NCBI GenBank assembly: GCA_944355355.1
Contig: CALVQE010000001.1
Coordinates: 69,351 to 133,350, forward strand
Direction: 5' to 3'
DNA from: an uncultured Bacilli bacterium
Lineage (GTDB): Bacteria; Bacillota_I; Bacilli_A; RF39; UBA660
Length of the DNA stretch: 64,000 nucleotides
Part shown: one piece after another, positions 502 through 54,280 of the stretch
Layout of the letters: each line of letters starts with the position of its first letter
How positions within the stretch are numbered: the stretch's first letter is position 1
The notes under the pieces: generated by a model
Databases searched by the model: none
What the model was told of the DNA's origin: nothing
What the model saw: only the letters and a program-made list of their open reading frames with translations
Program-made: the position numbers and the translations under genes

Positions 502-1155
502 TTAACCTTGATCTGCCATTTGAGCAGCTTCAGCAGCAGCAGAAATATTACTTATACAAGTATTTAAAGCCTCGAAAATTTGACTCATATTTGTATTTAA
601 AACGTTAGTCAAAGTTTCTTTTGCAATTTCTGCAGCATTACCATCCCAAATACCAGAACCACTATTTAATTTAGCTAATTCAGAATCTAAAGTGTTTTTT
701 ACTCCCTCTAAATTACCCTTTATTGAAGATAAAGCTGTACCAATCTCGCTAATTACACCATAATCATAAGTAACAACTTCCTTATTTATATTAGCTTCGC
801 TCATTTCTGTAATTTGTGAAAAATTTAATTGTCCAAAATTAGAAGTAACTGTTGTATCAGCTCCTAAATTAGCAATTTCCAAATCAGCAATACTCTTAGC
901 AACATCCGTCATTGCTTGCGAAAAGCTTTGTCCAAACTCATTAGAAAAACGAATTAAAGCATTATGAGTATCCATAAAGTTTTGAAAATTTTGAGCAGCA
1001 GCAGCTCCTGTCCAAACATTTGGTTGAACTAACTTTTCAATTTGTTCATTAAACTTTAATGAACACCCTTTTACACTTTCGGGTCCTCCATTTAAACATT
1101 CTACAACTTTATTAGCCCAATTTTTTGCAGCTACTGGTTCATAAACTAAAGCCAT
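502..1155 (-). CDS. 217-aa protein with two WXG100-like hairpin motifs (NVWTGAAAAQNF and GIWDGNAAEIAKE); possible type VII secretion-related substrate or adaptor
   Basis: ORF track. Two W-x-G motifs each followed by an AA..F/AAE helix start, about 110 aa apart. Helical and Ala/Asn/Ser-rich like Esx-family proteins. TTGAGT-N17-TATGAT promoter and GAGAGGAG RBS upstream on the minus strand. Confidence 0.4.
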   Translation of the reverse strand: MALVYEPVAAKNWANKVVECLNGGPESVKGCSLKFNEQIEKLVQPNVWTGAAAAQNFQNFMDTHNALIRFSNEFGQSFSQAMTDVAKSIADLEIANLGADTTVTSNFGQLNFSQITEMSEANINKEVVTYDYGVISEIGTALSSIKGNLEGVKNTLDSELAKLNSGSGIWDGNAAEIAKETLTNVLNTNMSQIFEALNTCISNISAAAEAAQMADQG

Positions 1156-3574: not shown

Positions 3575-3821
3575 CGAAATTATTTCCCGGGAAATAATTT
3601 AAATAAAAAAATCATGAATATAAGGACGAGTTAAAACCCGTGGTACCACCTTATTTCATGATTATCTCATGCACTCTTTCTCTAACGCAGAAATACGTTT
3701 CAACTCCAGAGCCATCTTCCATAGTAACCCTTTACTTATTTTCACCAATCATAAGCTCTCTAAAAAAGAATCATTATGTACTCTTTCCTTCACCATTGAA
3801 TACCCTAATTCTAACATAAAA
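3575..3821 (-). promoter_or_regulatory. T-box riboswitch leader (Met-specific by context) upstream of metG, with a terminator/antiterminator switch
   Basis: On the minus strand there is an F-box-like GCGTTA, then the T-box sequence AAGGTGGTACCACGGG (plus 3637-3652; consensus AGGGTGGTACCGCGG). It overlaps the 5' arm of a hairpin (CATGAAATAAGG ... CCTTATATTCATG, plus 3614-3660) followed by a U-tract (plus 3601-3612). The 266-nt 5' leader length is typical of T-boxes. Confidence 0.75.
3582..3595. promoter_or_regulatory. Noc-binding-site-type palindrome ATTTCCCGGGAAAT, within the 22-bp palindrome AATTATTTCCCGGGAAATAATT at 3578-3599
   Basis: Exact match to the B. subtilis NBS consensus. Located in the metG leader. 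Confidence 0.65.
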
Positions 3822-4343
3822 TTAAAGAATGTCAATTTTATTTACAATAATTTTAGTAAGAAAACGTGTAAAATCTATCATATAAGAAAGAAAAGGTTGC
3901 TCTTGATATAAAAGGATCAAACCCATAATATCCCCAGAAACATTAATAGGCTCAATATGAAAATAACCGCTCAAATTAAAATATTGTACAGGCTGATTAG
4001 TAGTATAACATTCGCGATTCATAATAAATTCCTCTAAAGAAGAAGGAATAGATAAACTTACTAAAGAAGAATCAAATGCCGTAATAACCTTCTCACGATC
4101 TGTAACAATTAGCTTTAACCCCATTACCTCAAAAGCTAAATTACAAAGAGGTTCTAAAGTATCTGTAATATTTAACAAATGAGAATACTTTTGAAGATAA
4201 ACCCCTTTATCTCTCACAAATATTTCTAAATCCTCCCCATCTTTAATACCTAAATTTTTTCGAATTTCTTTAGGCAAAACAATTCTTCCAAGTTCATCAA
4301 TTTTGCGAATAATTCCAGTCTCTTTCAAAGAAATACACTCCAT
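3822..4343 (-). CDS. spoVT: SpoVT/AbrB-family sporulation transcription regulator (AbrB-type N-terminal swapped hairpin plus GAF-like C-terminal domain)
   Basis: N-terminus GIIRKIDELGRIVLPKEIRKNLGIKDGEDLEIF matches SpoVT/AbrB. The 173-aa length and the position immediately downstream of mfd match the B. subtilis mfd-spoVT synteny. Confidence 0.75.
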   Translation of the reverse strand: MECISLKETGIIRKIDELGRIVLPKEIRKNLGIKDGEDLEIFVRDKGVYLQKYSHLLNITDTLEPLCNLAFEVMGLKLIVTDREKVITAFDSSLVSLSIPSSLEEFIMNRECYTTNQPVQYFNLSGYFHIEPINVSGDIMGLILLYQEQPFLSYMIDFTRFLTKIIVNKIDIL

Positions 4344-4374
4344 TCTACAACTATTGTGAACCGCCCTTTAAAAT

Positions 4375-7300
4375 TTATACTTCTAAATCATCACAAATTT
4401 TTTGAACCAAAGCCACCACATCATAAATAAAATGCTTTTCTTGATATAAAATTGGTAACAAAATACTAATCTGTTTATTTTCAAACTTAATTTGAAATTT
4501 TGGATTAATACTATACGCCTCCAAAAACAACTTATCTCCCTTAATTTTAGCAGAAATCTCCTCTGATAACCAAAATTGAATGATTCGGTTATTTTGAACA
4601 ACCTTAACAATATTTAAGCGGTTAGCTAACTTTTCAAACCATTCTTCATACATATAAATTCCCATATTTTCCGTGATAGTTCCAAAACGATCGATTAGCA
4701 TACTCTTGACATCTTCTAATTTTTGATAAGAATCAATTTCATTAATTAATTGATGAATTTCAATTTTAACTGACTCATCCGAAACATAATCATCGTCAAT
4801 ATGTGTTTCAACTCGAATAAGAGACTCCTTATCCTCATCTTCAGGAACATATTCACCCTTTAATCGTTTCATTTCATCTTCAATCATTTTCATATACAAA
4901 CTAATTCCAACTGTATCAACAAAACCAGCTTGCTCACTACCCAAAATATCTCCAGCTCCGCGTATAGACAAATCTCTCATTGCAATCTTATAACCACTAC
5001 CAAGCTCCGTAAAATCTCGAATAGCCTGCAACCGTTTTACGGCAATATCATTAAGCATCTTATTTTTATGATATAAAAGATATGCATATGCAATCTTATT
5101 ACTACGACCAACACGGCCCCTAAGTTGATAAAGCTGACTAAGTCCAAAACGATCCGCATCATAAATAATTAAAGTATTAGCATTAGGAATATCAATACCT
5201 GTCTCAATAATAGTCGTACTAACCAAAATATCAAAATCATAAGCAATAAAACTACTCATAATATCATCTAACTCAGTTTTAGTCATCCGACCATGAGCAA
5301 AACGAATTCTAGCCTCAGGAACCAACTTTTGTAAATGCGAAACCTTTTCCTCAATCGTTTCTACTCGATTATATAAAACAAAAACTTGCCCATTGCGCGC
5401 TAATTCTTTATAAATAGCATCTTTAACTAACATATCACTATCCGAAACAACATAAGTTTGAATTGGATATCGATTAATAGGTGGAGTATCAATAATAGAT
5501 AAATCCCGAAGTCCCGATAAACTCATTTTTAAAGTCCTAGGAATTGGTGTAGCCGATAAAGTTAAAACATTAACATCATTTTTTAATTCTTTAATCTTTT
5601 CTTTATGCGTTACTCCAAAACGTTGTTCCTCGTCAATAACTAATAACCCTAACCGTTTAGGTTGAACCTCCTTCGAAAGAAGACGATGCGTTCCAAAAAC
5701 AATATCAATCTTTCCAGACTTTAAGCCTTCTAGAATTTCTGCTGCTTCTTTCTTTGTCGTAAAACGATTAAATAATCGAATTTCTACAGCAAAATTACGA
5801 AATCTCTCCAAAGCAGATTCATACTGTTGTTTAGATAAAATCGTTGTTGGACACAAATAAAGAACTTGCTTATTATTACAAACAGCCTTAAACATACCAC
5901 GAAAAGCAACTTCCGTCTTTCCAAAACCAACATCACCACATAATAAACGATCCATAGGCACAACTGAATCTAAATCATGAAAAACATCCTTAATTGCCCG
6001 AATCTGATCTCTTGTCTCGTCATAAGCAAAATCATTGGCAAATAAGTCCTCCTCAGGAAAATCTTGATACGCTTCACCAACTACACTATTACGCTTAGCA
6101 TATAATTTAATTAGTTCCCCAGAAATATCTCGAATTTTTTTCTGAACAGCTTGTTTCTTTCTCTGCCATACAGGAGAATTCAATTTATTAATCTGAGGCT
6201 TCATTCCATCTTTATCACTATATTTATATATACTAGAAATCTTCTCAACTGGCACATAAACCTTATCATTACCTAAATAAGCAATCTGTAAATAATCCTT
6301 TTTTAATCCCTGAACATTTAAAGTAACAACTCCACAATAAATGCCTATCCCATGTGCCCGATGAACAACATAATCACCAGTCTGTAAAGCATTTAAATCA
6401 CGAATTTTTTTCCCAATATGCAAATTATTTTTATACTTAACTTCCTGCTTAATTTCTTCAATATCAAATTCAGAAATAACGACCAAATTATCCCAAATAA
6501 AACCTTTATTTATCTTAAAATGAACGATATTAATTGCATTTTCATGAAACTGACCATCTTTCACTAAAACAACATTTTGCTCAAACAAATCACGAATCTC
6601 ACTAATCTGATTAGATGTTGACAAAGCAAAAACAACCGTCTTTTTTTGATAAATAAAACCTTGTACAACCTCTTTCAACTTAGTAAAATTTCCCTTAAAA
6701 TTATCAATTTCATTAGTTTGAAAACGACAAACATTTTTACTCTTTAAATCATTAACAACATGATTAACATATAAAATATAACTAGGATGAATTTCATCAA
6801 AAGAAAGAAAAAACTTTTGACTATCTAATTCTTGCTCCTTTTGATAAGCTAAACTTTCCTCAACCAAATGAGCATAACTAGCCTCAATTTGTGGATAATC
6901 AAAATAAACTACTGTAGCATCACCCATATATTGAAGTAAAGAACTATACCCTTCAGTTTTTACTTCATCAACAGGCCGACAAGTAATAGACGAAACCTCA
7001 CTAACAGTACGTTGTGTCTCTTCATCAAAATAACGAATAGATTCAATAGTATCGCCAAAAAACTCAATACGTATTGGATGGTTTTCATCAATTAAAAACA
7101 CATCCAAAACAAAACCTCTTACAGCATATTCCCCAGTTGAAGTAACCATAGAATCACGTTGATAACCTAAGTTCTCCAAAGTTGAAACCAAATCTTCACG
7201 AGAAATTTCCAAATCCTTTTTTAAAGTGATTTTCAAAGAATCCTGAACACTTTTTTGAGGAAGCATTCTTAGATATCCCATCAAATTAGTAATAACAATA

Positions 7301-7590
7301 CATTTTTCTTGAACCTTTTCCAAAGTTTCCAAACGCTTTAACTTTAATTCAGGAGATACAGCCAATGCTACTGAAGTAAAAAAATCATCCATTGGAAACA
7401 AAAAAACTTGATCTGTATAAGTTTCCATTGCTTGATAAAGCTTATTAGCATCATACAAATTACTTGTCACTAAAAGCACAGAAGAATCATGACATTTAAA
7501 ATACTCCAACACGTAAAAAAGAGATAACTCACTCGTTAATCCTTCATTTATTGTTCCATTATCAAATCTAAACTCTTTAAACTTTTCCAT
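4375..7590 (-). CDS. mfd: transcription-repair coupling factor Mfd
   Basis: 1071 aa, DEEQRFGV (DEAH box) and TLSATPIPRTL helicase motifs, with pth upstream. Confidence 0.95.
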   Translation of the reverse strand: MEKFKEFRFDNGTINEGLTSELSLFYVLEYFKCHDSSVLLVTSNLYDANKLYQAMETYTDQVFLFPMDDFFTSVALAVSPELKLKRLETLEKVQEKCIVITNLMGYLRMLPQKSVQDSLKITLKKDLEISREDLVSTLENLGYQRDSMVTSTGEYAVRGFVLDVFLIDENHPIRIEFFGDTIESIRYFDEETQRTVSEVSSITCRPVDEVKTEGYSSLLQYMGDATVVYFDYPQIEASYAHLVEESLAYQKEQELDSQKFFLSFDEIHPSYILYVNHVVNDLKSKNVCRFQTNEIDNFKGNFTKLKEVVQGFIYQKKTVVFALSTSNQISEIRDLFEQNVVLVKDGQFHENAINIVHFKINKGFIWDNLVVISEFDIEEIKQEVKYKNNLHIGKKIRDLNALQTGDYVVHRAHGIGIYCGVVTLNVQGLKKDYLQIAYLGNDKVYVPVEKISSIYKYSDKDGMKPQINKLNSPVWQRKKQAVQKKIRDISGELIKLYAKRNSVVGEAYQDFPEEDLFANDFAYDETRDQIRAIKDVFHDLDSVVPMDRLLCGDVGFGKTEVAFRGMFKAVCNNKQVLYLCPTTILSKQQYESALERFRNFAVEIRLFNRFTTKKEAAEILEGLKSGKIDIVFGTHRLLSKEVQPKRLGLLVIDEEQRFGVTHKEKIKELKNDVNVLTLSATPIPRTLKMSLSGLRDLSIIDTPPINRYPIQTYVVSDSDMLVKDAIYKELARNGQVFVLYNRVETIEEKVSHLQKLVPEARIRFAHGRMTKTELDDIMSSFIAYDFDILVSTTIIETGIDIPNANTLIIYDADRFGLSQLYQLRGRVGRSNKIAYAYLLYHKNKMLNDIAVKRLQAIRDFTELGSGYKIAMRDLSIRGAGDILGSEQAGFVDTVGISLYMKMIEDEMKRLKGEYVPEDEDKESLIRVETHIDDDYVSDESVKIEIHQLINEIDSYQKLEDVKSMLIDRFGTITENMGIYMYEEWFEKLANRLNIVKVVQNNRIIQFWLSEEISAKIKGDKLFLEAYSINPKFQIKFENKQISILLPILYQEKHFIYDVVALVQKICDDLEV

Positions 7591-7599
7591 TAAAATCCC

Positions 7600-8151
7600 C
7601 TACTTACTATTATAACGATTCATAGTTTTTTCTATTCCATTCTCAATAAAAAAATAAATAATCTCTTGATAAAAAGAAAAATGTTGGATTAAGAATTCCA
7701 TTTCATCTTTAGAAAAGTTTCCTAAAACATAATGTATAGTATCCCCTTTTAAATCATGCGAAATTCCTATTTTCAATCGAGCAAAATGAGTTGTTCCCAG
7801 TGCATCTATAATAGATTTAATTCCATTATGTCCTCCTGAAGAACTATCTATCTTCAACTTATGACGTCCAAAAGCTAAATCCATATCATCCTGTATCACT
7901 AAAATATCATCAGGATCAATATCATAATAACGACTTATCTTTGCAACGGATAAACCACTTAAATTCATAAAAGTAGTAGGTTTAACAAAAATACATTTTT
8001 CTCCTTGAATAGATTCTATCCGAACATAAGCTTGAAATTTTTTTTCTAAAGTAAATTCCTTCACAAAAGAATCTAAAATCATAAAACCAACATTATGACG
8101 AGTCAAAACATATTCTTTTCCAATATTTCCTAAACCAACAATCATTTTCAT
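7600..8151 (-). CDS. pth: peptidyl-tRNA hydrolase
   Basis: MKMIVGLGNIGKEY...TRHNVGF signature. Confidence 0.95.
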   Translation of the reverse strand: MKMIVGLGNIGKEYVLTRHNVGFMILDSFVKEFTLEKKFQAYVRIESIQGEKCIFVKPTTFMNLSGLSVAKISRYYDIDPDDILVIQDDMDLAFGRHKLKIDSSSGGHNGIKSIIDALGTTHFARLKIGISHDLKGDTIHYVLGNFSKDEMEFLIQHFSFYQEIIYFFIENGIEKTMNRYNSK

Positions 8152-8161
8152 TACTAATCAC

Positions 8162-8884
8162 TTACTTTCTAAAAATACCTTGATAACTTTCTAAACTTCC
8201 AATGTTTACTGGCGGATAAACACGAGTTCCAAATCGTCCTCCCTTAACACAAGTAACTAAAACCATTACAGGCTTTTCATTCATCTTAGAGTAAACAAAT
8301 TGTAATTCCTTTATAGCTAAACCAAAACGGTTAGCATAAATAAATATTTCATCAATCCGATCAGGAACATGTACTAAGTAAAATCTTCCCTTATCTTTTA
8401 AGAAAAAACTTGTTACTTCAAAAATTTCTTTCAATGTTATACAAATTTCATGTCGTGCAATACTTTTGATAAGATTTTTATTGATATTACTTGATTCTGT
8501 ATACTTAAAATACGGTGGATTACATAAAATAACATCAAAATTATTTCCCGGGAAATAATTTTTTAGCTCTTTTACATTATCGTGAATAAGCGTAATCACC
8601 TCTTCCATTTGATTATAACGGACTGACTCTTTGGCCAACTGGTATATTTCTTCTTGATACTCTACTCCCACAACTGGCTTACTATATTTATTTTGAATCA
8701 AAATAGGTATAACTGCATTGCCAGTACAAAAATCAATAATTTGATTATCATCTTTTTTTATCTGCGCAAATTCAAACAATAAAATTGAATCTAAAGAAAA
8801 TTTAAAACCTTCCTCATACTGATACACTTTTAGATTAGGATAATCAAATAACCAATTAAGAGTCTTTTTCATCATTCCAAACAA
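8162..8884 (-). CDS. class I SAM-dependent methyltransferase, YabB/TrmN6-like (NPPY motif)
   Basis: DFCTGNAVIPILI SAM-binding motif and NPPYFKY. Positioned after ricT and holB as yabB is in B. subtilis. Contains one copy of the ATTTCCCGGGAAAT palindrome. Confidence 0.75.
   Translation of the reverse strand: MFGMMKKTLNWLFDYPNLKVYQYEEGFKFSLDSILLFEFAQIKKDDNQIIDFCTGNAVIPILIQNKYSKPVVGVEYQEEIYQLAKESVRYNQMEEVITLIHDNVKELKNYFPGNNFDVILCNPPYFKYTESSNINKNLIKSIARHEICITLKEIFEVTSFFLKDKGRFYLVHVPDRIDEIFIYANRFGLAIKELQFVYSKMNEKPVMVLVTCVKGGRFGTRVYPPVNIGSLESYQGIFRK
8543..8556. promoter_or_regulatory. Noc-binding-site-type palindrome ATTTCCCGGGAAAT, with an identical 22-bp context at 8539-8560
   Basis: Inside the methyltransferase CDS, where it encodes YFPGNNF. 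Confidence 0.65.
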
Positions 8885-9653
8885 CCTCTTCTAATTGATT
8901 ATCAACAAGAACTTTACCTTTACGATTCAAAATGTCTATCTGAACGACTTTTCCCTTACCACGAGAAGTTTCAATTTCATCCCCTACACTAGGCAATCCA
9001 TAAGAACACCGAATATACTCTGCATCTTCATAAGACAAACAGCATAACAAACGTCCACAAGCACCATTAATTTTAGAAGGATTTAATGCTAAATTCTGAT
9101 TTTTAGCCATGTTCATAGTAATGGATTCAGTAAATTTATAGCATCCCGTACAACAAAGAAGACGTCCACACATACCAACACCACCAATATCACTAGCTTT
9201 ATCACGAGCACCAATTTGTCTTAATTCAATTCTCGTTTTATAAACTTGAGCTAAGCGCTTAGCCATCTCACGAAAATCTACACGCTGATCAGCATGAAAA
9301 TTAAAAAATAGCTGCTTTCGGTCAAAAGTAAACTCTGCATCTAAAAAATTCATACCTAAACCTAAATTTTCATTTTCTTTCTTAGCAAGCTTTAATGCCT
9401 CCTCAGCATCACGTAAATTTTTCAAATACTGCTCATAATCTTTCTTAGTAGCAATGCGAATTACATTTTTTAAATTAGATACATCTATAGAGGTGGATAA
9501 ATCAATTTTCCGTACAACACGTCCAAACTGCAATCCCCTCTCAGTTTCAACAATAACCGTAACACGATTAGGAATTTTTAAACGACCACCATTAAAATAA
9601 TATCCTTTTCCCTTATCTCGAAAAACAACTTCATAAATATTCATCAAATTCAC
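8856..9653 (-). CDS. ricT: PSP1-domain regulator RicT (YaaT, stage 0 sporulation / RNase Y specificity factor)
   Basis: Strong match to YaaT throughout (TRIELRQIGARD, CGRLLCC Cys cluster). Confidence 0.9.
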   Translation of the reverse strand: MNLMNIYEVVFRDKGKGYYFNGGRLKIPNRVTVIVETERGLQFGRVVRKIDLSTSIDVSNLKNVIRIATKKDYEQYLKNLRDAEEALKLAKKENENLGLGMNFLDAEFTFDRKQLFFNFHADQRVDFREMAKRLAQVYKTRIELRQIGARDKASDIGGVGMCGRLLCCTGCYKFTESITMNMAKNQNLALNPSKINGACGRLLCCLSYEDAEYIRCSYGLPSVGDEIETSRGKGKVVQIDILNRKGKVLVDNQLEEVVWNDEKDS

Positions 9654-10486
9654 CTACTTTTCAAAACAAAACGATCTAATAAAAATTGAATATTTAAATT
9701 ATAATTTAACTCATCTAACAACTCAGATAAGTAATTCATTTGTTTAAAAAAATATTCTGTATCCTTTTTCAAAAGAAAACTTAAAGCTTCATACTCTTGA
9801 GATAACTCAGAACGCATCATTTTAACTTGATAAAATGATGCATAAATTTTAAACAAACTTTGAAACAAATAAAGCAATTCCTTACGATCATGAATAAGAG
9901 GTAATAGCACACTTCGATTATACAAAACAGCTTCATCACCAACAGATTCATATTCTTTAATATAATTTATAGCAATTGAATGCCATACCTTAGGTACAGA
10001 ATAAGATACAACTCCCTCATAATAATCTAAAATAATCTGACAACGACTACGAATAGTATCAATAATATTCTCTTTATTATTTGTTATAAAAAATCCTAAA
10101 ATATTATCCTCAGGTTCCTCTAAAAATTTTAAAATCGTGTTAGCACTTGATGCATTCAAAGATTCAGCATTCATAAACACGTACATATTGTATTTAGAAA
10201 ATGTAGGTTTTGTCTGAAAAGACTGCATCATATCTAAAACCTGTTCCTTTTTTATACTAAGGCCATCTGGACGAATCACAATTAAACTAGGAAGACTCAA
10301 AGAAGTAATAAGACGCTCTAATTTAGCATTCTCCTGCTCATCATCTGTCTCGTTAATTCTAGCTAAGAACAATAACAAATTTTCTAAACATTGTTCGATA
10401 TCATTCGTTTCAAGCAAAAAAGCATGAGATAGCTTGTTCTCATGAAATTCATTATAAAGTTCTTGAATTCCTTTACTTTTTTGCAT
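9650..10486 (-). CDS. holB: DNA polymerase III delta-prime subunit
   Basis: 278 aa, AAA-like with a degenerate P-loop (HAFLLETN). Conserved position between dnaX-recR and ricT. Confidence 0.7.
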   Translation of the reverse strand: MQKSKGIQELYNEFHENKLSHAFLLETNDIEQCLENLLLFLARINETDDEQENAKLERLITSLSLPSLIVIRPDGLSIKKEQVLDMMQSFQTKPTFSKYNMYVFMNAESLNASSANTILKFLEEPEDNILGFFITNNKENIIDTIRSRCQIILDYYEGVVSYSVPKVWHSIAINYIKEYESVGDEAVLYNRSVLLPLIHDRKELLYLFQSLFKIYASFYQVKMMRSELSQEYEALSFLLKKDTEYFFKQMNYLSELLDELNYNLNIQFLLDRFVLKSR

Positions 10487-10502
10487 TTTTTCTCACCCAT
10501 CA

Positions 10503-10697
10503 TTATTTTACTATAAAAAATAAAATAATTAAAGATGAAAGACCAGGTATTCCAAGTAAAGTAACAACTCCAACAGTTATAACATTAATAGGAATATAAA
10601 CATGCAAAGAGGAAATAAAATAATTTAATCCATACAACAATAAAAATGATACTACAATCTTTCTTAATACAGCAATGATTTTTTTAATCATAGGCAT
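10503..10697 (-). CDS. bofA: BofA-like small membrane protein (pro-sigma-K processing inhibitor family)
   Basis: C-terminal LHVYIPINVITVGVVTLLGIPGLSSLIILFFIV aligns with B. subtilis BofA LGIHVPINLVTTAISGILGIPGIAALVV. bofA lies after recR in B. subtilis as well. Confidence 0.7.
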   Translation of the reverse strand: MPMIKKIIAVLRKIVVSFLLLYGLNYFISSLHVYIPINVITVGVVTLLGIPGLSSLIILFFIVK

Positions 10698-10730
10698 TCC
10701 TCACAACAATATATGAAAAAAAATTCAGAA

Positions 10731-11339
10731 TTATTCTGAAATTACTTTTCTATCACTTAGGGCTTTATCCAAAGTAGTCATATCAAGATAATCAATTTCT
10801 GCTCCTATTGGCAAACCATAAGATAATCTTGAAATTTTTACATTTTTCTGTTCAAAAATCTTTTTAATATATAACGTCGTAGTTTCACCTTCAATAGAAC
10901 TTTTTAAAGCTAAAATCAACTCTGGAGTCTTTAAAGATTCAACTCGCTTAACTAATGACGATAAATTAATATCCTCTGCACCAATATCATCAATAGGTGA
11001 AATCAGTCCATTTAAAACATGATACACACCTCTAAAATTACCAGCTTTTTCAAAAGCAAATGCACTTTTATAATCCTCAATAACACAAATCAAATTGTGA
11101 TCGCGATTTTCATTAGCGCAAATAGTACAAATCTCACTATCAGTTAAATTCCCACAAATAGAACAAGGGTGCAAATCTTTTTTAGCCTTAACCAACTCAT
11201 TACTAAAAATCTCTATATCATCTACAGGCAAATTAAGTGTTGCCAAAGCCATTCTTTCAGCACTTTTTTCACCAACACCAGGTAATTTCTTATAAAATTC
11301 AATAATCTTATCCAAACTTTCAGGATAAACCGAATTCAT
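10731..11339 (-). CDS. recR: recombination protein RecR
   Basis: C4 zinc finger CSICGNLTDSEICTIC, Toprim domain. Confidence 0.95.
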   Translation of the reverse strand: MNSVYPESLDKIIEFYKKLPGVGEKSAERMALATLNLPVDDIEIFSNELVKAKKDLHPCSICGNLTDSEICTICANENRDHNLICVIEDYKSAFAFEKAGNFRGVYHVLNGLISPIDDIGAEDINLSSLVKRVESLKTPELILALKSSIEGETTTLYIKKIFEQKNVKISRLSYGLPIGAEIDYLDMTTLDKALSDRKVISE

Positions 11340-11340
11340 T

Positions 11341-11637
11341 TTACATTAATCCATCAAGCATACCAGCATATTGTCCCATTTTTGCTTGAAATTCCTTATC
11401 TATCTTAACTAAAGCATCTTTTTGAGCCAAAACAATAAAATCTTCTAACATCTCAATATCATCTTTATCTAAAGAATCTTTTTGAATAGAAATTTTAACC
11501 AATTCTTTTTTGCCATTCAAAGTTACTTCAACAAATTCATATTTCCCGGGAAATAATTGTGCATTAATTTCTTCTTTCTTTTTTTGCAAATCTCTTTGCA
11601 TTCTCTGTGCTTGAGCCATTATACTCTGCATATTCAT
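11341..11637 (-). CDS. ybaB: nucleoid-associated protein YbaB/EbfC
   Basis: 98 aa, conserved position between dnaX and recR. Contains one copy of the ATTTCCCGGGAAAT palindrome. Confidence 0.9.
   Translation of the reverse strand: MNMQSIMAQAQRMQRDLQKKKEEINAQLFPGKYEFVEVTLNGKKELVKISIQKDSLDKDDIEMLEDFIVLAQKDALVKIDKEFQAKMGQYAGMLDGLM
11541..11554. promoter_or_regulatory. Noc-binding-site-type palindrome ATTTCCCGGGAAAT, within a 19-mer shared with the other two copies at 11540-11558
   Basis: Inside the ybaB CDS, where it encodes LFPGKYEF in a different codon phase from the methyltransferase copy. Confidence 0.65.
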
Positions 11638-11657
11638 AAAAATCTCCTTCTTTCTAT

Positions 11658-13283
11658 CTAAACAATTTCTATTTTATCACGATTAAAAACATTTGTCGTG
11701 ATTTCTTCCAACTCAGAACCTTTTTTAGGCTTCATTTCATCTAAAACAGACTCATCCATTAACGAATACTCAAATTTTTGTTTTAATTTTGCTATGTACT
11801 CTTCCTTTTCTTTACGCCAATCTTGTTCACTTAAAGCAAAAAAATGAACAGTCTTATCAAAATAATGCTTTAATGCCCCCTCCATTTGATCTAATTTTGA
11901 ATTCAATATCTTAGCGGTACTCTCCAACTTAGAAGTAATCAAAATATAGTCAGAAGAAGCAGCAACTATTGAAAAATCTAAAACGTAAGAAGCAATATCA
12001 GGGTCGGTTACAGCATCATCTGAAATCTTCTTCCAATTTGCTTGATACTGAATCAAATATTCTTTTTTTGCACCACAAAAGCAGTTATTAACACGTATTT
12101 CGCGTAATTTTTGAAGATATTGATTTTCTTGATCTACAATTTTCATTTCTTCTTCTCTATTTCCTTGTTCTTGAATTGGGACTGATGATTCATTCGAGAC
12201 ATTCAAAATTGAGCTATTCACAACATTCAACTCAACCTTAAAAGGGTTATTTTGAATATCCCCCAAAAGAACTAAAAGAATCAATGAAAAAGGATTCATA
12301 TTAATATTAATCTTATTCAAAATATCATTAAATTTAAAAATCATATCTCGTACTTGCTTAAAAGAAAAATTACCACTATAATTACCAGTTTTAATTAAAA
12401 CAGCAATATGAGACAATTCCTGAACAACTTTTTTTATAAAAACCTTATAATCACTGGATGTACTTTCTAAGTCTTGAATAGCTTCAACAACTTTTGAAAC
12501 ATCATTGTTAGCTACAGACTCTAATAAATCCTTAATAAATTTTGAAGAAATAGATCCATAATTCTCCAATATTTTATCTAAAGTAATTTCTTCTTCATTA
12601 CTAGATAACTGATCTAACAAACTCAAAGCATCTCTCATACCACCTTCTGATAAAGATGCAATTTCAGAAACAGCTTCATCAGTAATTTTAATATTTTCTT
12701 CCTCACATACATATTTTATTTGCTTTTTTAAATTTTCTAAGGAAATCTTTTGAAAATTAAACCGTTGACAGCGTGACAAAATAGTAATTGGAACGCTCTC
12801 AACATTAGTAGTCGCCATAATAAAAACTGCATGCTTAGGAGGTTCCTCCAAAGTAAGTAACAAAGCATTAAAAGCACTTGTAGTCATCATATGAACCTCA
12901 TCAATAATATAAATTTTGTATTTACCTGTCGATGGAGCAATCTTTACATTATTAATAAGCTCTCTAATATCATCAACACCATTATTAGAAGCAGCATCAA
13001 TTTCAATAATATCAGGACTAGTTGCAAAAGATAAACAGTTAGTACATTCTCCACACGCCTCACCATCAATAGGATTTAAACAATTAATAGTCTTTGCAAA
13101 AACCTTTGCAGTAGAAGTTTTTCCTGTTCCCCTTGGACCAGTGAATAAATAAGCATGAGAAATCTTTTGATGAATAATAGCATTTTTCAACATTTGAATA
13201 GAATAATCTTGTCCAACAATATTAGAAAATCTATCAGGACGATATTTACGATATAACACCTTATAATTCATATAATTCACCAC
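11658..13283 (-). CDS. dnaX: DNA polymerase III tau/gamma subunit
   Basis: GPRGTGKTS Walker A, clamp-loader motifs, zinc module CGECTNC. Confidence 0.95.
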   Translation of the reverse strand: MVNYMNYKVLYRKYRPDRFSNIVGQDYSIQMLKNAIIHQKISHAYLFTGPRGTGKTSTAKVFAKTINCLNPIDGEACGECTNCLSFATSPDIIEIDAASNNGVDDIRELINNVKIAPSTGKYKIYIIDEVHMMTTSAFNALLLTLEEPPKHAVFIMATTNVESVPITILSRCQRFNFQKISLENLKKQIKYVCEEENIKITDEAVSEIASLSEGGMRDALSLLDQLSSNEEEITLDKILENYGSISSKFIKDLLESVANNDVSKVVEAIQDLESTSSDYKVFIKKVVQELSHIAVLIKTGNYSGNFSFKQVRDMIFKFNDILNKININMNPFSLILLVLLGDIQNNPFKVELNVVNSSILNVSNESSVPIQEQGNREEEMKIVDQENQYLQKLREIRVNNCFCGAKKEYLIQYQANWKKISDDAVTDPDIASYVLDFSIVAASSDYILITSKLESTAKILNSKLDQMEGALKHYFDKTVHFFALSEQDWRKEKEEYIAKLKQKFEYSLMDESVLDEMKPKKGSELEEITTNVFNRDKIEIV

Positions 13284-13615
13284 AATCTATCAACAATACA
13301 TATTGTACCAAGTCGCTAACGCGAAGTCCAGATTAAAGTGGATTATTACAATTTAGTAATCCAAAATTTTAATGTTTTTATTGATTAAATTTTCAAATCA
13401 GGTATAATAATCAACATAATCAGGAATATAAATAGTAGAAAAAAATACTTTTTCCTAAATAATGATCCTTAAGGATAATTGTTTTTTCGCTACCGACTGG
13501 GTACAATAACGTTAGAACATATTTGTTAATAAATTTTTTAGAGCATTACGAATTTGAAGTATTGTTTTTTTTTATTAACAAATATGCCATAACTTACTAT
13601 AAATTATAACATATA

Positions 13616-14026
13616 CTAACGAAATTTCTTAAAAAAATCAGAAAGAATTTTAGCATACATTAGTTCGACATCGTTATCAATTTTGGCGAAAATAGTTCGA
13701 TCAAATTCTTTTTTAAAAGACAATTTTGTTAACAAATAGTAAACATTTTTGATCCTGGCTTGCTTAATAACCTCTTTACACATATTACATGGCTCTAAAG
13801 TCACATATAACTCGCAATCAGCCAAATTCCAACGATTTAAGAACTTAGAGGCGCTCATTATAACGTTAATTTCAGCATGTCCTAAAACATTATGCTCTTT
13901 TTCTCGTGTATTATGAGCAAAAGCAATAATTTTTCCATCTTTAACCAAAATAGCCCCAATAGGAACATCACCAGTTTCTAAACTTTTCTTAGCTTCCTCG
14001 ATACATACATCAAAATATTCCTTCAT
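13616..14026 (-). CDS. tadA: tRNA-specific adenosine deaminase TadA
   Basis: HAE and PCNMC deaminase zinc motifs. Start placed at the internal ATG (MKEYFD) preceded by a GGGAG RBS. The 33-codon upstream extension in the ORF track lacks an RBS and runs toward the parS array. Confidence 0.85.
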   Translation of the reverse strand: MKEYFDVCIEEAKKSLETGDVPIGAILVKDGKIIAFAHNTREKEHNVLGHAEINVIMSASKFLNRWNLADCELYVTLEPCNMCKEVIKQARIKNVYYLLTKLSFKKEFDRTIFAKIDNDVELMYAKILSDFFKKFR

Positions 14027-14157
14027 AATATACTCCCATAAAAAAAGTGCACACAAACAGGGAATGATGTGGCTGCTATCTTCCGATCCTGACCAGATTA
14101 CACTATATTTGTTGCACGAATACATAATATCAAATATTCAAGTAAAAATCAATCCAA

Positions 14158-14173
14158 TGTTTCACGTGAAACA
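14158..14173. promoter_or_regulatory. parS: parS site TGTTTCACGTGAAACA
   Basis: Perfect 16-bp palindrome. Matches the Firmicute parS consensus TGTTNCACGTGAAACA 16/16. Confidence 0.9.
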
Positions 14174-14277
14174 TCTTATCAACATTTAAGATATTTGCCT
14201 ATGATTATATAAATTTTGATAAATTTAATTAATTTGTAAAACTAATTCCTATTTTAAATGATTAATACAAGAATATA

Positions 14278-14293
14278 TGTTTCACGTGAAACA
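14278..14293. promoter_or_regulatory. parS: parS site TGTTTCACGTGAAACA
   Basis: Perfect match to the parS consensus. Confidence 0.9.
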
Positions 14294-14597
14294 TTGTTAT
14301 TCACACAATAATAAAATAATTTAATCAAAATGTAACAAAAATTATTCATTAAAAGATATTCGTAATAAATTAAGAGATTACAAATAAGGATATTTGATCT
14401 TTATACGATCAAAAAAGTAAAGTTTAATAAAAAACTTTAATACATGCAAAAAAAATTACTATCATTTTGCTTAAATTATTGAATTTCTTATAAATAATTT
14501 GAAAATTGAAATTAATAAAAAAAATACAATTAACTATTTTTACATTCATATATTAAAATCAAGAATAAATTTAGTTATATAATTTTAATTATTATCA

Positions 14598-14613
14598 ATG
14601 TTTCACGTGAAAC
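14598..14613. promoter_or_regulatory. parS: parS site TGTTTCACGTGAAACA
   Basis: Perfect match to the parS consensus. Confidence 0.9.
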
Positions 14614-14719
14614 ATCTTATCAACATTTAGGATATTTAACTATAAATATACAAATTTTAATAATAATTAATAAATTATCCATAAATATTCTATATTTTAA
14701 ATGATTAATACAAAATATA

Positions 14720-14735
14720 TGTTCCACGTGAAACA
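14720..14735. promoter_or_regulatory. parS: parS site TGTTCCACGTGAAACA
   Basis: Identical to the B. subtilis parS consensus. Confidence 0.9.
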
Positions 14736-14881
14736 TTGTTATAAACATAGGCAATTAACTAATTATTAAACTGATTTTTTAATCACACTAAAAATATTAC
14801 TTAAAATAAATAATTATTGTATTAAATTATAAAAAATTGATATAAGTAAAAAGTATACTATTTATTTGCATTATTAATAAA

Positions 14882-14897
14882 TGTTTCACGTGAAACA
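14882..14897. promoter_or_regulatory. parS: parS site TGTTTCACGTGAAACA
   Basis: Perfect match to the parS consensus. Confidence 0.9.
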
Positions 14898-15002
14898 TCT
14901 TATCAACATTTAAGATATATGCCCATAATTATATAAATTTTGATAAAATTTAATAAATTTGTAAAATTAATTTCTATTTTGAACGATAAATACAAGGATG
15001 TA

Positions 15003-15018
15003 TGTTTCACGTGAAACA
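15003..15018. promoter_or_regulatory. parS: parS site TGTTTCACGTGAAACA
   Basis: Perfect match to the parS consensus. Confidence 0.9.
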
Positions 15019-15305
15019 TTGTTATTCACACAATAATAAAATAATTTAATCAAAATGTAACAAAAATTATTCATTAAAAGATATTTGTAATAAATTAAGA
15101 GATTACAAATATAGATATTTGAGCTTTATATAAAAAAACTTTAATACATGCAAAAAAGATTACTATTATTTATTTTGCTTAAATTATTGAATTTCTTATA
15201 AATAATTTGAAAATTGAAATTAATAAAAAGATACAATTAACTATATTTATTTTCATAAATTAAAATCAAGAATAAATTTAGTTATATAATTTTAAATATT
15301 ATCAA

Positions 15306-15321
15306 TGTTTCACGTGAAACA
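15306..15321. promoter_or_regulatory. parS: parS site TGTTTCACGTGAAACA
   Basis: Perfect match to the parS consensus. Confidence 0.9.
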
Positions 15322-15426
15322 TCTTATCAACATTTAGGATATTTAACTATAAATATACAAATTTTAATAATAATTAATAAATTATCCATAAATATTCTAT
15401 ATTTTAAATGATTAATACAAAATATA

Positions 15427-15442
15427 TGTTCCACGTGAAACA
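15427..15442. promoter_or_regulatory. parS: parS site TGTTCCACGTGAAACA
   Basis: Identical to the B. subtilis parS consensus. Confidence 0.9.
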
Positions 15443-15588
15443 TTGTTATAAACATAGGCAATTAACTAATTATTAAACTGATTTTTTAATCACACTAAAA
15501 ATATTACTTAAAATAAATAATTATTGTATTAAATTATAAAAAATTGATATAAGTAAAAAGTATACTATTTATTTGCATTATTAATTAA

Positions 15589-15604
15589 TGTTTCACGTGA
15601 AACA
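15589..15604. promoter_or_regulatory. parS: parS site TGTTTCACGTGAAACA
   Basis: Perfect match to the parS consensus. Confidence 0.9.
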
Positions 15605-15710
15605 TCTTATCAACATTTAAGATATTTACCTTAAATATACAAATTTTAATAATAATTAATAAATTATCCATAAATTATTTTATATTTTAAATAATTAATA
15701 CAAAAATATA

Positions 15711-15726
15711 TGTTCCACGTGAAACA
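15711..15726. promoter_or_regulatory. parS: parS site TGTTCCACGTGAAACA
   Basis: Identical to the B. subtilis parS consensus. Confidence 0.9.
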
Positions 15727-15819
15727 TTGTTATGCACATATAGGCATTTAACTAATTATTAAGTTATAATTTTATTTAAGATATTCATTTAAAAACAGTA
15801 CCAAAGTTAAATTTACGAA

Positions 15820-15835
15820 TGTTTCACGTGAAACA
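15820..15835. promoter_or_regulatory. parS: parS site TGTTTCACGTGAAACA embedded in a 26-bp perfect palindrome ACGAATGTTTCACGTGAAACATTCGT, 20 bp downstream of the gyrA stop
   Basis: Perfect match to the parS consensus. The extended palindrome spans 15815-15840. Confidence 0.9.
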
Positions 15836-15854
15836 TTCGTATAAAAAAAGAAGA

Positions 15855-18308
15855 TTACTCATCTTCCTTTTTTATACTAGCTTCATCTTCAGAAATATTA
15901 CTTTCCTCATGACCTACGATACTTATAGTAGATACAGTTTGATCATCTTTTAAATGAATAAGTCTAACACCTTGAGTGGCTCTTCCAAGAGTAGAAATTT
16001 GTTGTAAAGGCAAACGAATTAACATTCCTGTATCTGTAATAACTACAACATCTGAATTATCTTCAACAAGTTTAAATGCAGCAATAGTACCGTTTTTATC
16101 AGTAATATTCAACGCTTTAACACCCTTACTACCTCTACTAGTTTGTCTATAGTCACGAACATTTGTTTGCTTTCCATAACCTTTCTTAGTTACAATTAAG
16201 ATTTTATCATCATCTGTGGCAATTTCAGCCCCAATACATTCTTGATTATCCAAATTAATTCCACGAACTCCACTAGCAGTTCTTCCCATAACTCGAACAG
16301 CATCTTCATTAAATTTTACCATTCTTCCAGCATTAGAACCTAATAAAATCATATCATTTCCTGTTGTTTTTCGTACGCCAATAAGCTCATCTGAATCACG
16401 AAGTGAAATACATATCTTACCATTCGTTCTAATATTGTCAAATTCTTCTATTGCAGTTTTCTTTACTATTCCTTTGCGCGTAGCAAACAATAAATATTTT
16501 GCCGGATCATCTTTTGTAATCTTAATCATCGAATTAATCGATTCATCTTTATCGATTTGTAATAAGTTGATAACAGGTATTCCCTTAGATTGACGATTAA
16601 ATTCAGGCACTTCATAACCTTTCAAACGATAAACTTTACCCTTATTTGTAAAGAATAAAACATAATCATGCGTAGATAAAGTAAGTAAATGTTCCACAAA
16701 ATCTTCTTCATTGGTTCCCATACCTTTAACACCTACTCCACCACGATTTTGAGATTTAAATGTATCAACAGTTGTCCGTTTAATATATCCCTTGTTCGTA
16801 AGTGCAATCATAATGTTTTCTTCTGGAATTAATGACTCATCTTCGATATACTCAATAGCTGTCATATCAATATTAGTACGACGTTCATCAGCATATTTTT
16901 CCTTAATTTCCAATAATTCCTGTTTAATAATATCCAATACCAATTTCTCACTAGCTAAAATAGCTTTATATTCTTCAATTTTCTTCAATAATTCCGCCAA
17001 TTCAGCCTCAATTTTATCTTTCTCTAAGCCCGTTAAACGACGTAATCTCATTTCAAGAATTGCATCACTTTGAATTTCAGAAAGTCCAAATCGACTCATC
17101 AAAGCTTCTTTTGCTTCAACATCAGTTCTACTACCACGAATAATTTTTATTACCTCGTCAATATGATCTAAAGCAATCTTTAATCCCTCTAAAATATGAA
17201 CACGATCTTCAGCTTTCTTTAAATCATATTGTGTTCTTCGAACAATAACTTCTTTTTGGAAATCAATATATTTACTAATAATATCTTTTAAACCAAGTGT
17301 TTTAGGAACTCCTTGATCAATCATTAGCAAAATGATACCATATGAAATTTGAAAAGAAGTATGCTTATACAAATTATTCAATACAACTTGAGGATTAGCA
17401 TCCCTTTTTAAAGTAATTGTAATTTTAATACCATCTTTTAAATCAGAATGATAATCAGAAATACCATCAATCACTTTATTGTGAACAAGTTCAGCCACTT
17501 TATTTTTTAATTCCAAAGTATTAACACCATATGGAACCTCATCAAATATAATTTGATAACGACCATTCTTTTCTTCAATGCTTGCTTTACTTCGAATCGT
17601 AATTGTTCCACGACCTGTTTCATAAGCTTTCTTAATACCACTATTCCCTAAAATAGTTGCTCCCGTCGGAAAATCAGGACCTTTGATATACTGCATTAAT
17701 CCAAGTGTATCAATATCTGGATTATCAATATATGCAACACAGCCATCAATAACTTCACCCAAATTATGAGGAGGAATATTTGTTGCCATACCAACAGCAA
17801 TACCCATAGTTCCATTAACTAAAATATTAGGAAAACGACTAGGCAAAACCTCAGGTTCTTTCTCAGATTCATCAAAATTTGGAATCATATTAACAGTATC
17901 TTTGCCAATATCTCTTAATAGTTCACCGGAAATCTTAGCTAGTCTAGCCTCAGTATAACGCATTGCTGCCGCGCCATCACCATCCATATTACCAAAATTT
18001 CCATGACCATCAATCAAAGGACAACGATAACTAAAATCTTGAGCCATACGAACTAACGCTTCGTAAATAGAAGAGTCACCATGTGGGTGAAATTTTCCCA
18101 TAACATCACCAACAATACGAGCGCATTTTTTATGTTGCTTATCAGAAGTATAACCAGATTGATACATAGAAAATAAAATACGACGATGAACAGGTTTTAA
18201 ACCGTCTCGTAAATCTGGTAAAGCACGAGAAGTAATAACACTTACAGAATAATCAACAAAAGATTTACTAACCTCATTAACAATATTGTTTTGTTCAAGC
18301 TTATCCAT
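15855..18308 (-). CDS. gyrA: DNA gyrase subunit A
   Basis: 817 aa, active-site Tyr region [15 protein letters not shown]-like segment, C-terminal beta-pinwheel repeats. Confidence 0.97.
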
Positions 18309-18318
18309 ACACTACCTC

Positions 18319-20241
18319 CTATATATCCAAATCAGCATAACGAGCATTATCCTCAATAAACTTACGTCTTGGCTCAACTTCCTCACCCATAAGTGTTGAA
18401 AATATCTCATCTGCTGCAATTGTATCGTCAACCGTAATCTGTCTTAATGTTCTTTTCTCAATATCCATAGTTGTCTCGTAAAGTTCATCAGCATCCATCT
18501 CACCTAAACCCTTCATTCGACCAATTTCATACTTTGTACTAGGAGATAAAGATGCGATATATTCATCTTTTTCTTCATCTGTTAAAACATATTTAATTGT
18601 TTTACCATGTTTAATACTATATAAAGGTGGTTGAGCTGCATAAACATGCCCTGCTTCCACAATTGGTTTAAAGAAACGATAAAACAATGTCAATAAAAGT
18701 ACTCGAATATGAGCTCCGTCAACATCAGCATCGGTCATAATAATAATTTTATTATATCGAAGTTTAGATAAATCGAATTCTTCACCAATACCAGTTCCAA
18801 ATGCTGTAATAATAGTTCTAATTTCTTCATTAGATAAAGCTCGATCAAGTCTTGCCTTCTCTACATTCAATATTTTTCCGCGCAACGGAAGAATAGCCTG
18901 TGTCATACTATTACGACCCTTTTTAGCAGAACCACCAGCACTATCACCCTCGACTAGGAAAATTTCACACTCAGAAGGATCTTTACTCTTACAATCTGAT
19001 AACTTACCATAGAAATTAGTAATATCCAAATCGCCTTTCCTTCTCGTCAATTCACGAGCTTTCTTAGCCGCTAAACGAGCCCTAGAAGCAGTCATACATT
19101 TCTCAATAATTGCCCTAGCAGCATCAGGATTTTCTAATAAAAATCTTTCTAATCCATTACCAAAAACATCACTGGCAATTTTTTTTACTTCACTATTTCC
19201 CAATTTAGTCTTCGTCTGTCCTTCAAACTGAGGATTAGGATGTTTACAAGAAACAATCATAACTAATCCCTCTCGAACATCTTCACCTGTCAAACTGTCA
19301 TCATTATCTTTTAATAACTTATTCTGTTTAGCATAATTGTTAATAACTCTTGTTAAAGCTTGCTTAACACCATCTTCATGAGTACCGCCTTCAGTAGTAT
19401 GAATATTATTTGTAAAAGAATATATTTGAGAATTATAAGAATCGTTATATTGCATAGCCACTTCAATCATAACATCATTTTCTCGGCCCTCAACATAAAC
19501 AATATCATTAAATAAAGGCTGTTTAGCTTTATTAAGCATTTGAACATATTCAATAATTCCACCATTATAGTGAAAAATCTCTTTTTGCTCGTCCTCACGA
19601 TGATCAATTAAAGTAATTCGAATTCCCTTGTTTAAAAAAGCCATCTCTTGCAATCTTTTAAAAAGAATATCCCAATTATAAATGGTTGTTTCAAAACAAG
19701 TAGGATCAGCATGGAATGTAACCGTTGTTCCTGTTCGATCTTCACTACACTTATCAATAATTTTCAAAGGTTCTACAGGATGACCACCGTTTTCAAATCT
19801 TTGATAATAAACATTACCATCACGATAAACCCTAACCTCCAACCAATCAGAAAGAGCATTAACAACACTAGCACCAACACCATGTAGTCCTCCGGAAACT
19901 TTATAGCCACCGCCACCGAACTTTCCACCTGCGTGCAAAACTGTAAAAATTGTTTCAATAGTTGAAAGACCTGTTTTTGCATTCATTCCAGTTGGCATTC
20001 CACGACCATCATCTTTAACAGTTATTACATTACCTTTGCCAATTTCAACCTCAATATCATCACAATAACCAGCTAATGCTTCATCAACAGCATTATCTAC
20101 AATTTCCCATACCAAATGATGAAGACCTGCTTCATTAGTATTACCAATATACATACCAGGTCTTTTTCGAACTGCTTCTAACCCTTCAAGAACCTGGATA
20201 TCATTATCACTATAATGATTGTTATCTTGTTTCATGTTCAC
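18319..20241 (-). CDS. gyrB: DNA gyrase subunit B
   Basis: 640 aa, GHKL ATPase, Toprim [19 protein letters not shown]. Confidence 0.97.
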
Positions 20242-21875: not shown

Positions 21876-22021
21876 AATTTTTCCCCCTCCAAAAATGAAA
21901 ATTATCTCTAGAATAACACACAAAAAGAGAAAAAAATGTCGAAAAAAGAATTGTTCTAAAAATTAAGTTTAATTAAAAAATTTATAGCATTTATTAAAAT
22001 AAAAAACTGTCACTTGACAGC

Positions 22022-23140: not shown

Positions 23141-23295
23141 AAAGCATCCTTCCCTCTTTCTTATTTTATTTAATATATATTCATAATAATAATGATGTGG
23201 ATAATGTGAATAACTTTTGGAATAACTATAAATACTAGCTTCATAGCCCATTTTTTATGTGCATAGTTATTCACATTGATATTTTTTTATCCACA
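23141..23295. promoter_or_regulatory. oriC part 2 (dnaA-dnaN intergenic, incC-like): DnaA boxes plus an AT-rich unwinding element
   Basis: TGTGGATAA and TTATCCACA are perfect DnaA boxes; TGTGAATAA and TTATTCACA are 1-mismatch boxes. The AT-run ttattttatttaatatatattcataataataat at 23161-23195 is a candidate DUE. Confidence 0.8.
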
Positions 23296-52205: not shown

Positions 52206-52275
52206 AAAAGGTATTTATTTTTTATGTGGTTTTATGGTATAATTGCTAATAGTAAACCTGTTAGGAGAGATAAGT

Positions 52276-54254: not shown

Positions 54255-54280
54255 AAAATTGAGTTAAATAGCTCAATTTT

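Follow-up and report, generated by a model that had tools for sequence, protein, structure and literature searches.

Three palindromes identical to the Noc-binding site, and a putative Noc-type partner protein, beside the replication origin of an uncultured Bacilli bacterium

Why would a GC-rich palindrome recur three times within 8 kb of DNA that has a GC content of only 29.5%, once in a leader and twice inside genes that read it in different frames? The question was raised by a 64,000-nt stretch of a contig from an uncultured Bacilli bacterium, hereafter the window, for which the original prediction, made from the letters alone, had proposed three Noc-binding sites (NBS) under DNA-level conservation. 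That interpretation is supported here, while the genome GC content of 28% given with it is not borne out by the window. The three palindromes, named NBS1 to NBS3 in the order in which they lie, are probably loading sites for dimers of a Noc-type protein encoded in the same window, a reading in which I place good confidence on the strength of sequence comparisons. The site scan of this species was extended by 10 kb past each edge of the window, giving 84 kb in all, the whole of it around oriC, and the coordinates of the features are collected in Table 1.

Identity of the three palindromes

An exact scan of the window with the 14-mer ATTTCCCGGGAAAT, which is the Noc-binding consensus published for Bacillus subtilis (PMC3020112), returned exactly three copies, at 3582-3595, 8543-8556 and 11541-11554. 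These are the positions, genes and leader that had been predicted, and the window held no further match at up to two mismatches. All three copies extend to the 16-mer TATTTCCCGGGAAATA, which is identical to the 16-bp NBS core used in vitro, where the corresponding parS site is TGTTTCACGTGAAACA (PMC8429893); the predicted identity with the published B. subtilis site was thus confirmed. The base composition predicts 2e-5 copies of the 16-mer per window, and none of 100 dinucleotide-preserving shuffles of the window contained an exact match to the 14-mer, so that the recurrence is not a matter of chance, as had been claimed. NBS and parS differ at two specificity positions per half-site, with A in place of G and C in place of A. 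Both types of site are present in the window, the NBS reading TATTTCCC and the parS sites reading TGTTTCAC, and a search with the parS motif TGTTNCACGTGAAACA at up to three mismatches recovered the 11 sites of a parS array plus one chance match, and none of the three NBS.

NBS1 and NBS2 have 24 bp in common (AAATTATTTCCCGGGAAATAATTT); the original prediction was correct in calling them identical perfect palindromes and too cautious in giving their length as 22 bp. NBS3 shares 19 bp with the other two (11540-11558), which agrees with what had been described, and is palindromic over 16 bp. Neighbouring sites are 3.0 and 5.0 kb apart. Outside the 24 bp the flanks are unrelated among the three sites, which are therefore not part of a longer repeat or a miniature inverted-repeat transposable element (MITE); a check for such an element had accompanied the prediction, and none was found. 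NBS1 lies between the T-box leader and the start of metG; the U-run of the T-box terminator immediately precedes it, and the metG ATG follows 40 bp further on. The two copies in coding sequences (CDSs) are indeed read in different frames: NBS2 encodes N-Y-F-P-G-N-N-F in phase 0, and NBS3 encodes L-F-P-G-K-Y (within QLFPGKYEF) in phase 1. A fourth candidate, CTTTCCCGAGAAAG in spoIIR (42234-42247), had been put forward as a one-mismatch variant; it differs from the 14-mer at three positions, both outer specificity bases among them. At up to three mismatches, seven sequences of the window match the 14-mer where 3.5 are expected, and three of the seven are the exact sites; the spoIIR sequence was rejected as a site variant because it belongs to this chance-level class of matches.

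Conservation of the sites in relatives

Relatives were gathered by a scan for the RicT protein, keeping one genome per species, which yielded 80 loci with RicT identities of 89-55% from uncultured gut Bacilli ('Tenericutes', Ca. Ventrenecus, Coprobacillus sp. CAG:605). The exact 16-mer recurred in these loci at orthologous places, namely in ybaB, in the methyltransferase gene and after the metG T-box terminator, and it was kept in relatives with RicT identity as low as ~55%. Orthologous CDSs thus carry the motif at the same places, a comparison that had been suggested together with the original prediction. The place of NBS1 after the terminator U-run was kept in the 12 related loci that retain this site, even in two of them in which an extra gene has been inserted before metG. 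The NBS2 motif codons were present in ~48 of 75 distinct methyltransferase sequences (74 related loci and the window) with their synonymous positions fixed, and NBS3 was found at the orthologous place in ybaB of closer relatives with the CCC and GGG codons fixed.

Codons inside the motif were then compared by Fisher tests with codons for the same amino acids nearby. In the methyltransferase, the Phe in the motif was encoded by TTC in 52 cases and by TTT in 5, as opposed to 2 TTC and 125 TTT at two nearby Phe positions (p = 2e-37), and the motif Pro was CCG in 48 of 53, compared with 19 of 150 for the invariant prolines of NPPY (p = 3e-25); the motif Gly was GGA without exception (49/49). The bias was similar in ybaB, where Pro30 was CCC in 30 of 31 sequences and the comparison prolines were CCC in 5 cases and another codon in 145 (p = 6e-28), while Gly31 was GGG in 36/76 against 4/76 at Gly42. 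Where a species lacks the motif, other residues stand at these positions (T/E/V/I in ybaB, and L/I-L/E-P-E-S in the methyltransferase), which indicates that the protein follows the DNA motif and not the reverse. Rare codons that are fixed where the motif is present, together with other residues where it is absent, mean that selection acts on the DNA. The case for purifying selection on the NBS at the DNA level across species is therefore strong, and so is that for the predicted conservation of nucleotides rather than of protein. A unit of 16 bp was confirmed, since the base just outside the 14-mer (-1) is T in 98% of 175 distinct sites.

The same comparison bears on three readings that would do without a Noc-type binder, in which the palindromes are hairpins in RNA, by-products of restriction and modification at CCCGGG, or copies of a mobile repeat. 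In the metG leader, the 24-bp palindrome would form an RNA hairpin beside the ribosome-binding site. However, departures from the motif in relatives were one-sided (CCTGGG, CCCAGG), breaking the palindrome on one side, and never compensatory, which fits recognition of DNA by a protein rather than a stem in RNA. As a restriction-related origin would have it, the three CCCGGG hexamers found in the window all fall within the NBS; yet the AT-rich outer arms, which such an origin would not need, are invariant, no restriction-modification genes were found in the window, and by my own calculation ~0.7 CCCGGG would be expected in 64 kb at this GC content, so that there is no signal of avoidance. A mobile repeat is at odds with the unrelated flanks and with the presence of the sites at orthologous codons across species. 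For lack of covariation, and given the invariant arms and unrelated flanks, the hairpin, restriction-site and MITE readings were rejected, and hardly any credence is left to them.

The Noc-like protein, the parS arrays and the origin

The location of the sites is that of an origin-proximal cluster. The sign of the GC skew changes in the 24-28 kb bin, within the oriC region; dnaN, recF, gyrB and gyrA share the minus strand with dnaA, and rnpA, yidC, jag, mnmE, mnmG and rsmG are on the plus strand. The NBS are all on one arm, at 13-21 kb from dnaA; this arm carries dnaX-ybaB-recR-holB-ricT-methyltransferase-pth-mfd-spoVT-metG. They span 8 kb, and no other exact site was found in the 84 kb. In Staphylococcus aureus, all but one of 41 Noc sites lie in the origin half of the chromosome, each with 8-10 kb of spreading (PMC5540599). 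NBS typically occur in numbers across the origin-proximal half to two-thirds of a chromosome and are absent near the terminus. As far as the 84 kb around oriC bear on the replichore pattern that had been suggested as a check, the origin-proximal placement of the three sites is as expected of NBS.

Only one ParB-family gene was found in the window, 21.5 kb from NBS3, the nearest site. Its product, referred to here as the Noc-like protein, contains a ParB_N domain (PF02195, 119 bits), a ParB helix-turn-helix (HTH) domain (PF17762, 116 bits) and an alpha/beta, Noc-like C-terminal domain, and its best matches among solved structures were those of Noc (7NG0/7NFU, 198 bits). Alignment to the Noc structures gave the specificity residues Q133-K139-N144-R161 (Q-K-N-R), and the CTP motifs GERR and ENxQR are intact, with IIAGERRYKA and VENIQRRNL aligning with the motifs of Noc. 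The choice between parS and NBS is set by R173/T179/A184/G201 in ParB and Q173/K179/K184/R201 in Noc, and NBS specificity needs no more than Q173 and R201 together with one K, at either 179 or 184 (Jalal 2020). The signature was always Q-K-[N/S/T]-R in 42 metagenomic loci that encode the Noc-like protein. Over its N-terminal 205 residues, the protein is 59% identical (241 bits) to a Q-K-S-R paralogue in related locus L092; against the canonical ParB encoded there, identity is 47% (167 bits), and by this comparison it is orthologous to Noc rather than to ParB. Locus L092 (8302-11666) keeps the order rsmG, noc-like (519 aa), parA, parB, and the ancestral ORI cluster consists of gidA-gidB (mnmG-rsmG), noc and soj-spo0J (PMC8136486). 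In the window the noc-like gene directly follows rsmG; no parA or parB comes after it there or in the 42 related loci, and neither parA nor a second parB was found in the window or in the 10 kb past each edge. The Noc-like protein is plausibly the cognate binder of the NBS.

Several points weigh against this assignment. The organism is known only from metagenome contigs, and the site map of this species covers 84 kb around oriC. The residue equivalent to position 184 is N and not K. With the NCBIfam Noc model TIGR04285, the protein scored 285.2 bits and did not reach the cut-off of 315, the match covering only profile positions 1-198 of 255, and the NCBI name of an orthologue is only 'ParB/RepB/Spo0J family partition protein'. 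Finally, no N-terminal amphipathic membrane helix was found in the Noc-like protein or in any orthologue. In Bacillus Noc, such a helix of ~10 residues, followed by alpha2, is needed for membrane binding and occlusion (PMC8429893). Here, the ParB_N domain begins at residue 6 and all orthologues start MNTE..., and a longer N-terminus is ruled out by an in-frame stop at 33041 and the absence of any ATG, GTG or TTG between this stop and the GTG at 33092, which is preceded by an AAGGGG ribosome-binding site. The missing N-terminal helix makes membrane tethering of the Bacillus kind doubtful.

The protein has a long acidic linker (residues 202-324, between the HTH and the C-terminal domain) that AlphaFold2 predicts to be disordered, with a mean pLDDT (predicted local distance difference test) score of 67. 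In this region of ~140 residues a single helix is predicted at 249-261, and its motif NKFFN.LEDE (NKFFNFLEDE in the window protein) was invariant in the 33 homologues in which linker conservation was judged. The hydrophobic moment of this helix is 0.45, close to the 0.43 of the Bacillus N-terminal helix; that the linker helix replaces the membrane helix is speculation. Other parts of the linker (window positions 33695-34063) are conserved as well, the islands in the 33 homologues being PD...INNA.DI, NKFFNFLEDEAANMNM (the predicted helix), IEVLDDF, IMPFFF and NTIEEIK. Beyond the linker, DPMDSVIKLDPNY at residues 338-350 is conserved in the C-terminal region.

A different class of explanation would have the palindromes be operators for another factor, such as a local transcription regulator, and their match to the NBS a coincidence. 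Operators are typically palindromic, and NBS1 is located in the 5' leader of metG, a short distance upstream of its ribosome-binding site. The other two sites, however, lie deep in the CDSs of unrelated genes, on the coding strand, and no candidate regulator is associated with the sites. It would also have to be accidental that all 16 bp are identical to those of a characterised site and that a protein whose specificity residues fit this site is encoded both in the window and in 42 further loci. I regard operators as very improbable.

The neighbouring parS array, which represents the ParB centromere and does not belong to the NBS set, begins 2.6 kb from NBS3 in a gap of ~24% GC without open reading frames (ORFs), at 14126-15854, between the signal recognition particle (SRP) RNA gene/tadA and gyrA. 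A repeat search revealed a higher-order repeat with units ~707-725 bp apart and pairs of parS ~121 bp apart; Tandem Repeats Finder reported nothing in this gap, the period being too long and diverged. The array also contains 11 one-mismatch DnaA-box-like 9-mers (14176-15738; TTATCAACA, TTATTCACA, TTATCCATA and TTATGCACA) in one orientation, eight of them directly after a parS and the three copies of TTATCCATA at ~60-75 bp downstream of one; since all belong to the repeat unit, they do not count as independent copies. Arrays of 2-16 parS copies occur at the same place in relatives. With Q at position 173, the Noc-like protein is not expected to bind parS, so that a canonical ParB should be present elsewhere in the genome; none that could serve the array is encoded in the 84 kb. 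Among relatives, L091 (7079-8803) has a canonical parA-parB after rplQ, and a tblastn search of the 80 RicT loci with Soj matched L043 only, where parA starts ~10 kb beyond ricT, downstream of rplM and rpsI (20370-20789). Binding of both NBS and parS by the Noc-like protein was considered and judged unlikely, since parS-specific variants keep R173 and dual binders mostly have T or S at 201 (Jalal 2020), and since relatives hold a separate canonical ParB.

These surroundings raise the alternative that the Noc-type protein binds the NBS as proposed and serves, together with ParB and parS, in organising the centromere or origin instead of in membrane-tethered occlusion, with origin positioning, domain insulation or segregation as candidate roles. 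In addition to the missing membrane helix and the lack of an upstream start that could supply it, the distribution of the sites argues for such a role. In the species of the window, the three NBS lie within 11 kb of the parS array on one arm, with none in the other ~75 kb. Across 56 related loci, exact NBS occurred at 0.40 per kb inside parS arrays and 0.114 per kb outside; in 12 of the 56, an NBS lies inside the array at 22-68 bp from a parS. Interleaving of NBS and parS was recorded in L018, L020-L023, L026, L027, L029, L056, L071, L075, L080 and L085, the last of which (4142-5786) contains five NBS-parS pairs, each with a spacing of 45-47 bp, in a repeated unit. Relatives have one exact NBS per 7.9 kb on the RicT/parS side and one per 27 kb in 878 kb of metagenomic DNA around the noc-like gene, two figures that come from different sets of species. 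On the other hand, the clustering in the window is weak evidence by itself, with p ~0.03 for three uniform points falling within 8 of 84 kb (own calculation), and the array of the window species contains no NBS. Other lineages keep NBS in the jag-mnmE-mnmG region across oriC, known Noc sites are also enriched near the origin, and the conserved, amphipathic-looking linker helix could still bind the membrane. Taken together, a change of job of this kind appears unlikely, with a modest chance of being correct.

Two further observations concern the distribution of sites in relatives. The repeat of L085 also contains the permuted palindrome GGGAAATATTTCCC. The NBS across oriC belong to more distant lineages (L117, L129, L131, L133, L112 and L128) and lie in the jag-mnmE and mnmE-mnmG gaps, upstream of the noc-like gene by ~4.1 and 2.7 kb, where the window species has none.

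Table 1. Positions of the sites and of the features to which they relate, in window coordinates
Feature	Position	Strand	Remarks
NBS1	3577-3600		24-bp perfect palindrome AAATTATTTCCCGGGAAATAATTT; 16-bp core 3581-3596
metG T-box leader	3619-3802	minus	Rfam 117 bits; metG start at 3556
YabB/TrmN6-like methyltransferase CDS	8162-8884	minus	holds NBS2
NBS2	8537-8562		26-bp perfect palindrome; 16-bp core 8542-8557
ybaB/ebfC CDS	11341-11637	minus	holds NBS3
NBS3	11540-11555		16-bp palindrome TATTTCCCGGGAAATA, inside ybaB/ebfC
parS array	14158-15835		11 perfect canonical sites: 8 TGTTTCACGTGAAACA, 3 TGTTCCACGTGAAACA
oriC region	23196-25024		dnaA flanked by clusters of perfect DnaA boxes
dnaA	23296-24681	minus	
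Noc-type ParB-family CTPase gene	33092-34306	plus	404 aa; immediately downstream of rsmG

Several other features were recorded in the window. The longest ORF of tadA (13616-14125, minus strand) overlaps the SRP RNA gene (14041-14121, minus strand); the match to TadA starts at residue 38, so the true start of tadA is probably downstream of the SRP RNA. A ComK-family ORF (21408-21923, minus strand; PF06338, 129 bits) lies between recF and dnaN in an otherwise standard dnaA-dnaN-recF-gyrB cluster. Between jag and mnmE, a gene at 27289-28914 (plus strand) encodes a 541-aa protein without a Pfam match that is annotated as DUF7986 on the contig, and some related lineages have no gene at this place. 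A type VII secretion cluster with a WXG100-like protein extends from the left edge of the window (502-1155; 10744-20654 in locus L087), and the cluster also includes a 1515-aa FtsK/SpoIIIE-family ATPase, more WXG100 genes and a protein of >2800 aa without a Pfam match. An Agr-like quorum-sensing module at 52243-55070 consists of a LytTR response regulator (52243-52989), a GHKL kinase (52986-54254) and, on the opposite strand, an AgrB-family gene (54438-55070) with a 37-aa ORF beside it. A scan of the window for transfer RNA genes found none.

A working model and its place among known systems

The model that I favour, with the palindromes as loading sites of the Noc-like protein, can be laid out as a sequence of steps. 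By homology with the Noc-NBS complex, Gln133 and Arg161 of the HTH would read the A and the C that distinguish each half-site of NBS from parS, and Lys139 would give a permissive contact with the backbone. Binding to the NBS would trigger binding of CTP, upon which the protein would close into a sliding clamp and spread over several kb; closure of the clamp is expected given the GERR and ENxQR motifs. At their spacing, the spreading zones of the three sites would merge into one domain of ~15-20 kb beside oriC, which would abut a ParB domain nucleated by the 11-copy parS array. Selection would preserve the position of this domain, which would explain why the 16-mer is kept in two housekeeping genes and the leader of a messenger RNA at the cost of rare codons. 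The output may be to mark the origin-proximal nucleoid and in this way coordinate division or segregation.

The system is of a known kind, found in a new uncultured lineage and with an unusual protein partner. Four features make it a variant: the protein has no membrane helix and carries a long linker with conserved motifs, soj-spo0J has been lost from beside its gene, and giant parS arrays are closely associated with the sites. These features are compatible with either classical nucleoid occlusion or an output in organising the origin or centromere. A bolder version of the latter, which I consider doubtful, is that a Noc paralogue has been rebuilt by losing its helix and gaining a disordered linker (NKFFNFLEDE, IEVLDDF, MPFFF). 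The ParB and Noc-type clamps would then co-load on one composite centromere beside oriC, and the Noc-type clamp, acting through its linker motifs, would insulate the origin domain, anchor it or read it out, without classical occlusion.

The NBS code has been studied experimentally in Bacillus (PMC3020112, PMC8429893) and Staphylococcus (PMC5540599), and it is found here letter for letter in a large, uncultured lineage of gut bacteria with small genomes. Single sites are kept at the same codons in dozens of species at a measurable cost in codon usage, which is direct evolutionary evidence that the position of an individual NBS matters and not only the overall distribution. A partner protein without a membrane helix would serve as a natural test case for the universality of membrane tethering among Noc-type proteins, and the NBS beside and inside giant parS arrays suggest crosstalk between two paralogous clamp systems.

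Among known systems, Noc-NBS of B. subtilis (Wu et al. 2009; Adams 2015; Jalal 2020, 2021) is like that of the window in its identical 16-bp site, in a ParB paralogue with Gln and Arg as specificity residues, a permissive Lys and the GERR/ENxQR motifs, in a gene directly after rsmG (gidB) in the ORI cluster, and in origin-proximal sites. In contrast to B. subtilis Noc, the window protein lacks the 10-residue N-terminal amphipathic helix, has Asn for Lys at 184, carries the conserved ~140-residue linker with its one helix and scores under the TIGR04285 cut-off, and its gene is not followed by soj-spo0J. S. aureus Noc has the same core consensus, and its density of ~1 site per 30 kb is comparable to 3 in 84 kb here; it also restrains replication initiation and was reported to be membrane-associated (Pang et al. 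2017, PMC5540599). ParB-parS resembles the NBS system in its palindromic 16-mer, in CTP-dependent loading of a clamp and in clustering near oriC, and differs in having G and A where the NBS has A and C, two differences per half-site, and in the R173 that is invariant in parS binders and is Q in the window protein. SlmA-SBS (SlmA-binding sites) of Escherichia coli and RacA-ram of B. subtilis are functional analogues, likewise built on a protein that binds specific DNA sites, whose protein folds and site sequences are unrelated. The sites of SlmA mark the origin-proximal chromosome for division control, and RacA anchors the origin region.

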